In this document: positions 42,257-62,939 of the stretch, one piece after another
How the letters are laid out: each line of letters opens with the position of its first letter
How positions within the stretch are numbered: position 1 is the first letter of the stretch
NCBI GenBank assembly: GCA_000165345.1
Contig: CM000433.1
Span: 544,001 to 608,000, forward strand
DNA length: 64,000 bases
Direction: 5' to 3'
Made by a program: the position numbers and the translations under genes
The notes under the pieces: model-generated
Told to the model about the DNA's origin: nothing
The model's database searches: none
What the model saw: the letters and a program-made list of their open reading frames with translations, nothing else

Positions 42257-45200
42257 ATGAAAGCGGCTCTGATTTTGGTTATTAGCATTGTAATTTGCTT
42301 TAAAAATGTATTTTCGCAAGGTGAAGAACTAATCAATAATATTAATGAGATTCAAAATTTGAATATAAATAAAACAATTAATGAAACTGTAAGATTAAAT
42401 GATAAAAAAGCTGATAATTCCACAAAGGAAGAAGATAAAGGATTTAGAATAAATCCAATTTCTTGGGACAATGTATTGAACGGATTAAGTGATATTTTTA
42501 ATGAAATTAATTGCTTATTTAATAAATTATGGGAATCTATAAGAATTTATATTAAAGGCAAAGAGGGTGTTTCAGAGGAAAATGAAATAAATACATTTAA
42601 TCAATCATTAATAAATTCTTCATCCACACTTGTAAAAAATCTTGAAGACAGACTCTTATGGTCATTCACAATTCCAGAATTTAAAATTAAGCTACCAAGT
42701 TTAAATACAACGGGGATTTTATTTGGAAATAAAAGTGCTAAAGATAAACAGAAGTTGGAACTAATGAAAATCAATCGCTCAACTTCAGAGGAGGAAATAT
42801 TGTCAGGGATTTTACTTTCATGTGCATTTTTTGCTTTGTATTTGATTTGCTGGATTTTTGCATATGTGAAAGATTTGTCTGATTGGGTTAGTATATTAAA
42901 AAGACCGAATTTGATATTTTTACAACAAATTCCAAGCAACAATCAATTGAAAAGTAAAAATGAAGAGAGAATTAACATGTTTAATGGGATAAAGTTCCCA
43001 TATACCAATTTATATTTTATTCCACCGATCAAAATGAAAGTGGGGTATGTAAGAATATTAACTATTACCATGCAAACAGTATTTTTTCCGCTAACTCTCA
43101 TTCATTTTATAACTTCAAAATTTAAAGTTTCTCATTTTCACTTTGAATATTTCAATAGCAAATTAAAGAGTTATTATGAGACAATGAAAAATGATGGATT
43201 TGTTTTGAATTACTTTTATATGACAAACCAGGAATATAGGTCTAAAGATGGAATCAAAATATCAGAGAAAAAATTTTCAAAAAGTATTTACGATGAAAAT
43301 ATTGTATTATTGAATATTATTAGATTTATTTCTTCTAAAGAGAATTCTAATAAACTTCCATCTATGGAAGATTTGAAGAATTGGTGTCATGGATTTTGGT
43401 TCAAGGCAAATAAGATAGATATATCGCAATATAAGGAGTTACTTCCAAGAATTGCTTGTCTTATCATTTTAAGAAAGCTTGTCCGAAGTGAGCAAATTTC
43501 TTATGACTATCTAAGAAGGTTAAGGATGCAAATAATTGGAGCTAACAATCAAGCAGATCTTGTGAGAGATTGGATCAAGTCTACATTAGTAAGAAATAAT
43601 CCAAAACTCAATTTTCCAAATCAATGGACTCAAAGAAGTCCTACAGGATCAATAAAGATTAATATTCATGATAATGGAATTTATACTCTTATTAATGATT
43701 ATTTGAATAGAGTTGGGATTCATTCTGAATGCCAAATAAAATTACTAATGGAATTAACTTCAGGACAAGTTCAAAATTTGGAATGTTATTTGTGGCTAAT
43801 TGATGAGCTTCAAACAATATGTATTCACCCAAGGATACTATGTGATTGTATTAAAGGATTTGATTCTTTGGAATGGATTGGTCCAATGGGATTTTTACCA
43901 TTTGACAATATTAAATCGATATTGATAAATGATACCGTTGCAGGAACTGTTACATTAACATTGGAAGAAAATAAGTCGAAATCTAAAGTTCTTAAAAGAG
44001 AAGTTACTTCTAGGGCAAACAAATCTAATGGAAAAATATCCACATTTGAAGGAAATTTACGCATTTCAGAAATTGAAAAAACGTATAAAAATAATCCCAT
44101 CATAAAGTTTACGGTATTAGAAGAAAAAGATGATATTTCAAGCTTAAACCACTTAATAAAAAGTCTCATACCACAATCAAGGTCAAAACAAAGTTATGAC
44201 AATGAGCTTTCTGACTTTTCTACAGAAGCTTCAATGACTATGGACCTCAATTCAACATTGAACAGTACTTTACCAAGAAGTGTATTAAATGAAGGAACAA
44301 ATGATGTATTTTGGGGTGAAAAGTTGAATATCAGATCAAAAAATGTCAAGGGAGATTATGAAATAGATTATAATTCAACATGTTTTTGGGATTTTGATAT
44401 GCCAATACCATTTACAGCCACATCTGTATTAATTAACAATGTTTTAACTTATGTTTGGATTAATTATGATTCAAAATTACTCTGTATTCAAAGAAAGGAT
44501 TCTCCTATCGAAAAAACAGGAGATTTCAAGTCTAATGATAATTTAAAGAATCAATTAAGCCAAATTAATCAATTGAAAGAATCTATGGCTCTAAATAAAA
44601 TTAGAAGTTTTGATGATGATATAGTAATTGAGAGTGTGAATAACACTCCAAATTCTGATTCATGTATTGAAATTTTGAATCTAGGTAATATTCTTGGTGA
44701 GAAAAATAAAGAAATCAAGTATTCTAGTGATAATCACATTAATAACAAAGCAAATACTGTTACAAGAGGATTTATGGATAAAGGAAGATTATCCACAAAT
44801 TTTGACCAAGACAAACAAGAGGAAATTGAGGCAGAAGCACATAATATTGTCAATAAATGGTTGCCGTTTGACAAGAGCTTATATTCAGCTTTTGGTGTTT
44901 TGACATATGATGATATCCAAAATCTTCATCCTGTATATGCAGTACCTGGTATTTTAAACGGAGCTTTTTGTACTAGAGGGTTTTTTATTGGATCAATTAT
45001 TAATGTGCATGTTATTGGAGACTTTGTTGATGATATTATTGATGAATATGCAATTGGAATAGAATCTCAGTTACTAATTACCTTTGAGGGCGGATTAAGT
45101 TTAAGAATTAATACTTTTTCCCAAGGAGCAGCGAACTCTCTTAAGGAGAATTTGGAATCAATTATCGATAATTTAGAAGAAAATATTTTATTACCCATGA

Positions 45201-61400: not shown

Positions 61401-62939
61401 ATGAGTCAGAGTACACTTTTTCATAAGAGTGTATTGATTTTCTTTATTGTAACTATTTTCTATGGGTACCAAATAAAGTTATTAGAGTGTGCAACAGCAA
61501 ATTCCGATGTTTCGGAACAGAATAACCCAAATAGCATGCCAAGTGCAATAAATACTAGGCATGCAACGAGTCTTTATGAAAACTTGGTACCAAAACATCC
61601 TCAAACTTCAACATCTTTACTATATGGAAGAATGAAAGTACGTAATTGGCTTTATGTAACAAGGCGAAATAAGGAGGTGGGGGCATTAAGATATGGACTT
61701 AATAATGATGATATGCATGTAACAATTCAGATGTATGTTAACAACTTGAAGACTCACATTCCAGTTCAAAAGACTTATTTACATGAAAGAAGAGGTAAAG
61801 CAAGAAAATATAAAAGAAAATATATGTATTGGATTTGGAGACGTTGGAGATATTTACTTTCAGCAAAGGAGAGAATGCCAATATTAGTTGAAGATAAAGA
61901 TTTGAAGCAAATGCCAATAGATCCATTAGAAAGAGTTTATAGCTATGCGGTAAATATTATAGAGGTTCCAAACGCATTTTATTTAGAACAGGTACATTGT
62001 ATGTATACTGGTATTAAACCATTTATTAATGGTATTTTACCAAGTTATTCTTTACAAGATTTAATTGGAGCTTCTCTTTATTCAATAGGACCGGATGGAA
62101 TATTTAAGGATTATTTCTGTATACAAGCAATAAATTTATGGAGTGATGATCAAATAGTACCAAATGCTAATGCAATTTGTGAAAGAGCAAAGAAATGTTT
62201 AGATAATCGTGAAATAAATGAAAGAAAGACAAAACAACTATTTAATGAGTATGTGAATAAAATTTCCGTGATATATTCAAATAAAAGGTTTATTGGAGCA
62301 GATTCTGGATATACTTTTGCATCAAATGCATTCTTAGAAATGGTACAAATATTTCATGAATTAGAAGCACATAAACGTCCTGACTATATTGAGAAGCTTT
62401 TTGTAATTGTTAGATCAATAAGATTTATGATTTATGCAAATGAATTATTACTAAGATCAGGAGTTAAAAATAAAGCAGTTTTCAAAGCCCCAAATGTTTC
62501 AGATGTTATTCAATATTCAGTATTTAGAGTTGATCCAGTTTCTATGATAAGGTTTTGTGTTGCTCATTTTATAACAACAAGGTTCAAGTTTAGAAAGAAT
62601 ATGGGTATTGCTGTTATTGAGGAAGCATGCGCTCATAGTTTAAGTTTTGGATTTATTGATGATACAGGTCAATTACCCCGTGGTGTAACAAAATCTAAAG
62701 CTAGAGAAATAATTTATCAACATTTTTCAACTTTAGAAGAAGAGGAAGAACATGGTGACAATTTTGTTTTGATACATTCTCAGGATCAAAACATCTCTAT
62801 TGATGAGAAAGGTAATATTAGTAGAAATACAAAGAAAAAGGCAGAATTAGAAGATATTCAAGAAGCTGACGAAGAAAGTAATGAAGAGCTTGAAGATGAG
62901 GAGAATTGGAATACTTTTGTTAATCAATATATTGAGTAG
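61401..62939 (+). CDS. Predicted secreted protein (512 aa) with an acidic C-terminus. Function unknown.
   Basis: Signal peptide LFHKSVLIFFIVTIFYGYQ, a K/R/W/Y-rich basic patch (KARKYKRKYMYWIWRRWRYL), and a C-terminal E/D-rich tail. Confidence 0.5.
   Translation: MSQSTLFHKSVLIFFIVTIFYGYQIKLLECATANSDVSEQNNPNSMPSAINTRHATSLYENLVPKHPQTSTSLLYGRMKVRNWLYVTRRNKEVGALRYGLNNDDMHVTIQMYVNNLKTHIPVQKTYLHERRGKARKYKRKYMYWIWRRWRYLLSAKERMPILVEDKDLKQMPIDPLERVYSYAVNIIEVPNAFYLEQVHCMYTGIKPFINGILPSYSLQDLIGASLYSIGPDGIFKDYFCIQAINLWSDDQIVPNANAICERAKKCLDNREINERKTKQLFNEYVNKISVIYSNKRFIGADSGYTFASNAFLEMVQIFHELEAHKRPDYIEKLFVIVRSIRFMIYANELLLRSGVKNKAVFKAPNVSDVIQYSVFRVDPVSMIRFCVAHFITTRFKFRKNMGIAVIEEACAHSLSFGFIDDTGQLPRGVTKSKAREIIYQHFSTLEEEEEHGDNFVLIHSQDQNISIDEKGNISRNTKKKAELEDIQEADEESNEELEDEENWNTFVNQYIE

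Follow-up and report, generated by a model that had tools for sequence, protein, structure and literature searches.

Cryptosporidium has no effective drug or vaccine, and it is the host interface and the oocyst that matter most for disease and transmission. Several sets of its secreted proteins have been described. The MEDLE, SKSR, FLGN and GGC multigene families form subtelomeric clusters of polymorphic paralogues, which some species have often lost; DG8, SG4, DG3, CP2 and SG3 are dense- or small-granule proteins from which the parasite-host interface is built (PMC13241007, PMC12782386); the oocyst wall has the COWPs and further wall candidates (PMC6877471); and the WYLE family comprises six genes in C. 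parvum, five of them in tandem on chromosome 8. Here we describe a run of six + strand genes, at positions 42257-62939 of a 64,000-nucleotide (nt) window of Cryptosporidium parvum chromosome 5 (~30% G+C, with densely packed open reading frames that mostly lack introns). Our favoured reading, which we consider probable, is that these are six unrelated, Cryptosporidium-only genes of the secretory pathway, with their own promoter regions, that belong to two developmental programmes, one of the female and one of the zoite. The run resembles the MEDLE, SKSR, FLGN and GGC clusters in its signal peptides, its genus restriction and its physical grouping of secreted genes, but it is chromosome-internal and non-paralogous, occurs in each of the species examined and evolves under purifying selection.

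We found by exact-sequence protein look-up that the six open reading frames are annotated genes, namely cgd5_2680 (g1; 42257-46036, 1259 amino acids, aa; also examined by hydropathy and alignments), cgd5_2690 (g2; 46606-48546, 646 aa; also aligned), cgd5_2700 (g3; 49281-50279, 332 aa, a small, basic, secreted protein), cgd5_2720 (g4; 52336-58155, 1939 aa, secreted and cysteine-rich), cgd5_2730 (g5; exon 1 at 58745-58798 and exon 2 at 59044-60672) and cgd5_2740 (g6; 61401-62939, 512 aa). The starts first proposed for g3 and g4, at 49272 and 52312, are TTG codons; the database proteins match exactly from the annotated ATGs at 49281 and 52336, so the genes stand and these two starts do not. The run is interrupted by the minus-strand gene cgd5_2710 (gm; 50601-51323, 240 aa), which has no signal sequence, lies outside the secretory set, as the initial annotation had it, and keeps its position across the genus. 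Public names within the run are 'uncharacterized protein', 'putative signal peptide-containing protein' and 'large protein containing a signal peptide', and g6 is called 'Secreted Protein (WYLE family)'. Hence, all six genes are real and annotated, with functions that are uncharacterised. The run consists of ordinary known genes of unknown function and is not a new kind of genomic feature; pointing to it as a place of undescribed biology was reasonable as regards function, although every gene was already annotated.

A hydrophobic segment lies inside the first 40 residues of all six proteins and is kept in their orthologues, in agreement with the signal peptide or anchor originally assigned to each; these assignments come from hydropathy and conservation, not from SignalP. 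Signal sequences were found in 6/7 genes of the run and in 3/16 long open reading frames elsewhere in the window (Fisher p = 0.005). This density is the only unusual feature of the run, and the enrichment is moderate. Searches of Pfam gave no above-threshold match for any of the six proteins or their orthologues, and PDB sequence and profile searches with g1, g4 and g6, and with alignments including that of g2, gave no match. The absence of any placeable motif thus stands as far as Pfam and PDB go; one of the genes, g6, was already annotated as a WYLE family member. Among the six, all-against-all BLASTP had a best E value of 0.075 and gave no consistent alignment; therefore, the six are not paralogues and do not form the gene family that had been looked for.

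Published RNA-seq divides the run (Tandel 2019, PMC6877471, supplementary tables; values are mean log2 counts per million, CPM, for sorted parasites and approximate log2 CPM for bulk samples). For g1, log2 CPM is 0.96 in asexual parasites, 6.81 in females in vitro and 5.21 in females in vivo, and for g2 the corresponding values are 2.79, 8.42 and 4.15, so that female exceeds asexual expression 58-fold for g1 and 50-fold for g2. The upstream gene cgd5_2660 (36346-40167, + strand; M16-peptidase-like and outside the range first proposed) has 0.96, 7.01 and 6.50. Hence, g1, g2 and cgd5_2660 are female-gamete genes, and g1 and g2 are not invasion genes. As an aside, cgd5_2660 is as female-specific as g1 and g2 yet has no N-terminal hydrophobic segment. 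Transcripts of g3 and g4 instead peak in sporozoites (g3: sporozoite 8.1, 24 h 5.5, 48 h 5.3; g4: 12.4, 7.8 and 8.3), and the sporozoite mRNA of g4 is very abundant. In sorted parasites g4 has 7.53 in asexual stages, 6.44 in females in vitro and 8.27 in females in vivo, and g6 has 6.81, 4.53 and 7.64; both are thus lower in cultured females than in asexual stages. Hence, g3, g4 and g6 follow a zoite-formation pattern, being high in asexual parasites, dropping in cultured females, which are unfertilised, and rising again in vivo, where there is sporulation. Expression of g5 is low (sporozoite 5.2, 24 h 3.5, 48 h 5.8). The stage transcriptomics suggested as a check therefore revealed no shared stage, with g1 and g2 female-specific and g3 and g4 peaking in sporozoites, and the expression of the run is not that of one regulon.

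The larger of the two female genes in the run, g1, encodes a protein with a signal peptide and approximately six predicted transmembrane (TM) helices by hydropathy (~164-206, 262-286 and four within 1061-1220). Between the two TM groups lies a conserved region of ~780 residues, and the protein has 19 NxS/T sites. In alignments the TM segments are near-invariant, and the polar residues of the four C-terminal TM helices are almost invariant. An exhaustive phmmer search of 1.84 billion cluster representatives found only three relatives of g1, all from Cryptosporidium; they represent C. meleagridis, C. felis and, at 40% identity, C. muris/andersoni/serpentis. Hence, the family is genus-restricted as far as HMMER detects. 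Modelling of g1 residues 60-1259 from 13 sequences with AlphaFold2 gave a mean predicted local distance difference test (pLDDT) score of 33.8 and a predicted template modelling (pTM) score of 0.28, and the model is unusable. The g2 protein has a signal peptide, a conserved N-terminal domain (43-262), a variable acidic linker, a conserved C-terminal domain (393-640) and two cysteines. With most of the 69 female genes proposed for the oocyst wall (PMC6877471), g1 and g2 share female induction and signal peptides; however, the cysteine-rich type I/II repeats of COWPs are found neither in g1 (20 cysteines, no periodic repeats) nor in g2 (two cysteines), neither has a Pfam match, and g1 is a polytopic membrane protein, unlike wall matrix proteins. 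In a main-text literature search the gene identifiers of the run turned up solely within a phylogenomic partition list, with g1 and g2 otherwise unmentioned.

One tie of this run to a described system concerns g4. Among the proteins pulled down with anti-DG8 serum 3 h post-infection, g4 is present with 42 unique peptides and 115 peptide-spectrum matches (PSMs) at a log2 fold change (log2FC) of 5.57 (p 0.017; PMC13241007 S1 Table). Its enrichment ranks third among the 18 proteins that pass the thresholds of that paper, after DG8 itself and cgd8_1800, and its signal in the pre-immune control is near zero (PMC13241007). The authors describe the additional DG8 partners as enriched for predicted dense- and small-granule proteins, and cgd5_2720 goes undiscussed (PMC13241007). 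Like DG8, SG4, DG3, CP2 and SG3, g4 has a signal peptide, no known domain, zoite expression and a presence at 3 h post-infection, and it is strongly enriched with anti-DG8 serum beside SG4, DG3, CP2 and SG3. It differs in being unnamed and much larger (1939 aa with 28 invariant cysteines, compared with ~90 kDa for DG8 and 89 kDa for SG4), and its one tie to these proteins is co-purification. The 28 cysteines are invariant across eight species and all orthologues have a signal peptide; such conservation is typical of an extracellular, disulfide-bonded protein. A search of the supplements of PMC13419397 and PMC12782386 gave no match. Many of the enriched secreted partners of DG8 sit side by side on a chromosome (cgd6_5270/5280, cgd6_5400/5410/5440, cgd4_3440/3450, cgd1_3640/3650 and cgd8_1760/1770/1800; PMC13241007 S1 Table), which suggests that interface genes commonly lie in groups along the chromosomes of this parasite.

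The other sporozoite-peaking gene, g3, is the fastest-evolving gene of the run. Its slot in C. bovis holds a 309-aa signal-peptide protein with merely marginal profile similarity. In C. serpentis the same slot holds two tandem paralogues (16017-16910 and 17802-18680 of that locus; 297 and 292 aa), each with a signal peptide and with 52% identity between the two, a copy-number change in the run's fastest-evolving gene.

By sequence comparison g6 is a divergent chromosome-5 member of the WYLE family, and it is publicly annotated as such. Against the chromosome-8 WYLE cluster of C. meleagridis, tblastn with g6 matched five to six tandem loci at E values of 5e-31 to 4e-9, and phmmer gave 1.7e-20 to P0088. 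It is collinear with the chromosome-8 paralogues over ~330-360 residues (E 5e-31 to 8e-22) and shares with them xYLExxHCM, SYSLQD, LSFGFID and six cysteines, which are invariant in g6. Residues 193-196 read FYLE in g6 and its orthologues, with L195 and E196 invariant and Y194 nearly so, whereas the chromosome-8 paralogues have PSIWYLE[LI]IHCMH; the W as such is absent from g6, and the surroundings of the motif are conserved. The gene also differs from the other WYLE members in standing alone on chromosome 5 and in its identity of 22-37% to the chromosome-8 copies; since five of the six WYLE genes cluster on chromosome 8, its position fits the six-gene count. The hydrophobic segment (residues 10-29 by hydropathy) is kept in ten of ten orthologues. 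AlphaFold2 predicts an all-helical core with pLDDT of 70-94 over residues 170-320, confident there only, and the model had no meaningful fold match in PDB. Between species g6 is the most conserved gene of the run (53% identity to gastric C. serpentis), and none of its five companions in the run is a WYLE member. It too is among the proteins pulled down with anti-DG8 serum, at log2FC 2.81 (p 0.044) with merely 18 PSMs (PMC13241007). Its epitope-tagged chromosome-8 paralogue WYLE4 (cgd8_3560) was found with the parasite or parasitophorous vacuole, not the host cell. In the tandem WYLE cluster of C. meleagridis chromosome 8 (3887-19402 of that locus) three copies have PSIWYLE[LI]IHCMH, and one of the loci matched by g6, a short fragment at 12533-12884, resembles a pseudogene remnant.

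The two-exon model proposed for g5 proved right. Exon 1 (18 codons) encodes the signal sequence or anchor MKLNKSSIMTFAIIIVVL, a GTAAGT...TAG intron follows, and exon 2 encodes 542 aa of Lys/Glu-rich sequence; the spliced 560-aa product equals QOY41706 exactly, and three C. parvum assemblies currently annotate it in this form. The hydrophobic mini-exon and the GTAAGT donor (GTACGT in C. serpentis) are kept in seven species (C. parvum, C. hominis, C. meleagridis, C. ubiquitum, C. bovis, C. serpentis and one further species). The protein contains 18% K+R and 17% D+E. A CxCx(4-5)CxC motif in exon 2 (LKCECEEEECECR, 60160-60190), whose four cysteines are invariant in the seven species, may serve in metal binding or disulfide formation. 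In UniRef the C. hominis orthologue is called 'Plus3 domain-containing'; we rejected this label for g5, as there was no Plus3 match in Pfam at E <= 1 in g5 or six orthologues. The 245-nt intron (58799-59043) has two GCATGC motifs (58866 and 58950) and long T and A runs; an internal promoter could lie here and give rise to a transcript that lacks the signal-sequence exon.

Gene order g1-g2-g3-(gm, minus strand)-g4-g5-g6 is shared by C. hominis, C. meleagridis, C. ubiquitum, C. bovis, gastric C. serpentis and one further species, the last represented by a public read set. Orthologous loci were compared locally by tblastn and synteny; a word-indexed search missed the g4 orthologues of C. ubiquitum, C. 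bovis and C. serpentis, which synteny and local tblastn recovered. Since flanking housekeeping genes are equally syntenic, the conserved order by itself does not mark the run as a functional unit. Protein identity to C. parvum in C. ubiquitum, the further species, C. bovis and C. serpentis, respectively, is 79, 71, 53 and 40% for g1; 79, 70, 54 and 36% for g2; 64, 47, 36 and 26% for g4; 69, 55, 37 and 28% for g5; 79, 71, 64 and 53% for g6; and 80, 67, 44 and 42% for cgd5_2710. For g3 it is 79% in C. meleagridis, 47% in C. ubiquitum, 38% in the further species and ~23% in C. serpentis, and C. bovis had no tblastn match at E <= 0.01. Upstream of the run, cgd5_2660 has 82 and 52%, and cgd5_2670 has 90 and 70%, in C. 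ubiquitum and C. bovis. Orthologues of g2 to g6 were likewise found only in Cryptosporidium, in searches that were non-exhaustive; the lineage specificity first proposed is thus supported by an exhaustive search for g1 and by these narrower searches for the others.

The ratio of nonsynonymous to synonymous substitution rates (dN/dS; Nei-Gojobori, in comparisons with C. hominis and C. meleagridis) lies at 0.08-0.37 in every gene, with maxima in g3 (0.31-0.37) and g5. A look for elevated dN/dS had been suggested as a check, and whole-gene values are below 0.4 throughout; we rejected gene-wide positive selection on these values. Hence, every gene is under purifying selection at the whole-gene level, and g3, g4 and g5 are merely faster.

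The E2F-like sites reported upstream of all six genes are present, as the strict consensus TTTSSCGC (or TGGCGCCA) upstream of g1, g4, g5 and g6 and as the GCGGGAA core upstream of g2 and g3. They are TTTGCCGC (41757-41764, +), 500 nt upstream of g1; TTGGCGGGAA (46250-46260, +), ~350 nt upstream of g2; GCGGGAA (49137-49143, -), ~140 nt upstream of g3; three sites (51838-52149) in the 1012-nt spacer that separates the divergent genes gm and g4, namely TTGGCGGGAAA at 51838, GGCGCCAAA at 52108 and TGGCGCCA at 52142; TTTGGCGCCA (58590-58599, +), 155 nt upstream of g5; and a minus-strand site (61236-61243; + strand sequence TTGGCGGGAAA), 165 nt upstream of g6. The upstream spacers are 570-1010 nt long, one per gene, each with an E2F-like site. 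Both patterns exceed chance ~10-fold across the window as a whole (15 found vs 1.3 expected, and 10 vs 1.1), and more than half of the strict sites in the window lie upstream of unrelated genes. E2F is also the single most prominent open-chromatin motif genome-wide in this parasite (2025 preprint). For both reasons the sites are not specific to the run. Directly upstream of it are cgd5_2660 and cgd5_2670 (mannitol dehydrogenase), and the co-oriented + strand run actually starts at 30264, with non-secreted genes, which makes the shared orientation unremarkable. Hence, the E2F-like sites and the co-orientation, both pointed out by the initial annotation, are common to unrelated neighbours.

These results bear on how the run should be read. 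Were it a single functional island of co-regulated invasion, secretory-organelle and host-interaction effectors, as in other apicomplexans, one would expect the density of signal sequences that we found (6/7 vs 3/16), the restriction of all six genes to Cryptosporidium as far as found, their lack of known domains, and the presence of both g4 and g6 in the DG8 pull-down; the adjacency of other DG8 partners (cgd6_5270/5280 and cgd6_5400/5410/5440) likewise indicates that secretory genes tend to group in this genome. We nonetheless think such an island quite unlikely, since the genes are not paralogous, g1 and g2 are near-silent asexually and rise ~50-fold in females while g4 and g6 show the opposite trend, dN/dS is 0.08-0.37, the E2F-like sites and the strand run extend to unrelated neighbours, and a conserved order is weak evidence of linkage where flanking housekeeping genes are equally syntenic. 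What holds of the invasion and host-interaction cluster is that g4, and weakly g6, co-purify with DG8 and that g3 and g4 peak in sporozoites; the female-gamete genes g1 and g2 fall outside it. Transcription of the co-oriented genes as polycistronic units is very improbable. The genes do share a strand, and ~10% of C. parvum genes lie in 201 polycistronic units of 2-4 genes that carry E2F sites (PMC11761812), but here each spacer of 570-1010 nt has its own E2F-like site, neighbours within one sample differ by orders of magnitude (g3 ~8.1 vs g4 ~12.4 log2 CPM in sporozoites), and g2 and g3 fall into separate programmes.

At the other extreme, the genes might have come together by pure accident, with entry into the endoplasmic reticulum (ER) as their sole commonality and the DG8 link of g4 and g6 as an artefact of abundant, sticky secreted proteins. 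Published counts per Cryptosporidium genome are 309-399 signal-peptide proteins and ~770-840 TM proteins. By our arithmetic, which assumes independence, one to approximately fifteen such runs per genome are expected if any signal sequence or TM segment counts (20-30% of proteins), and ~0.03 if only true signal peptides do (~8-10% of proteins); given that base rate, the run is rare genome-wide only if all six are true signal peptides. The extreme abundance of g4 mRNA in sporozoites and the absence of g4 from the GFP-DG8-C list fit an artefact, whereas its third-highest enrichment among the 18 threshold-passing partners, with near-zero pre-immune signal, and the expression shared within the sub-blocks cgd5_2660/2680/2690 and cgd5_2700/2720/2740 argue against one, and we regard pure chance as improbable. 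For g5 in particular, a nuclear or cytosolic Lys/Glu-rich protein, with the mini-exon explained as an artefact of annotation or as an alternative 5' exon, is suggested by its charged composition, by the 2004 annotation (EAK87995, 456 aa), which lacks exon 1, by the UniRef Plus3 name of the C. hominis orthologue and by the intronic GCATGC motifs, which could mark an internal promoter. We doubt this strongly, as the mini-exon, its hydrophobicity and its donor are conserved in seven species including gastric C. serpentis, three C. parvum assemblies currently annotate the spliced product, and none of the seven orthologues has a Plus3 match at E <= 1. The reading of six unrelated secretory genes in two programmes draws on gene identity, signal sequences by hydropathy, non-paralogy, the lack of known domains, synteny, evolutionary rates, and published expression and pull-down data. 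Several points weigh against it: hydropathy is the sole criterion for the signal sequences; organelle of origin, final location and function are inferred for every product, localisation thus being an inference for all six; g5 is low-expressed, Lys/Glu-rich and, but for the mini-exon, nuclear-like; g4 is not listed in the pull-down with GFP-DG8-C, the recombinant DG8 C-terminus (PMC13241007), and its association may therefore be indirect, a serum cross-reaction or simple abundance; and the enrichment of signal sequences (Fisher p 0.005) hints that the neighbourhood is perhaps not wholly accidental.

Under two programmes, cgd5_2680 and cgd5_2690, with cgd5_2660, would be switched on in macrogametes. 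The cgd5_2680 product would be an N-glycosylated membrane protein with approximately six TM helices and that of cgd5_2690 a soluble, acidic two-domain protein; both would enter the ER through their signal peptides, and their destination would most likely be female secretory compartments or the surface of the gamete or zygote, with roles for example in wall-forming bodies, oocyst construction or fertilisation; the oocyst wall is a further plausible destination. The second group (cgd5_2700, 2720 and 2740, probably with 2730) would be transcribed as invasive zoites form, with mRNA stored in sporozoites, and its products would be loaded into secretory organelles of the zoite, for release at invasion. 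Large and presumably disulfide-rich, g4 would be tied, directly or indirectly, to the DG8/SG4 complex at the parasite-host interface by 3 h post-infection, probably as a granule-derived component of that interface or a client at it. The g6 product would probably reach the parasite or parasitophorous vacuole, like its tagged paralogue WYLE4.

A bolder proposal, which we offer tentatively and hold to be doubtful, makes g4 a large, disulfide-rich structural part of the DG8/SG4 ring by which Cryptosporidium is anchored to the enterocyte, and g1 a polytopic membrane protein of the macrogamete needed for oocyst formation or gamete recognition. On this view, exposure to the host would account for the fast evolution of g4 (26% identity across the genus). 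If both are true, a 'transmission' and an 'invasion' module have been adjacent since before the split of gastric and intestinal species. What is new here is a synthesis: non-paralogy, genus-wide synteny, graded rates, the split between female and zoite expression, and the unremarked link between cgd5_2720 and DG8. The best leads are cgd5_2720, among the strongest uncharacterised partners of the fitness-conferring DG8, and cgd5_2680; cgd5_2690 is a further one, as a genus-specific secretory product of the female gamete. Two expression modules in one 'cluster' advise caution in calling co-oriented signal-peptide genes effector islands in a compact genome.

Several minor features were noted around these genes. 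The N-terminus of the interrupting gene cgd5_2710 has the spacing C-x2-C-x14-H-x4-H, similar to that of a C2H2 zinc finger; it has no Pfam match. In C. serpentis a GT_PLOD-like glycosyltransferase gene (7846-9417, minus strand, of the same locus as the duplicated g3) separates the mannitol dehydrogenase gene from the g1 orthologue; the matching 633-nt C. parvum spacer is gene-free. Searches for tRNA genes and Rfam families within the run found none. Far upstream of it, between two protein-coding open reading frames, the window contains a full-length U6 spliceosomal small nuclear RNA gene (9473-9580, +; Rfam RF00026, 62 bits). Finally, (TA)n microsatellites occur at ~48655-48685, in the g2-g3 spacer, and at ~58605-58630, in the g4-g5 spacer.

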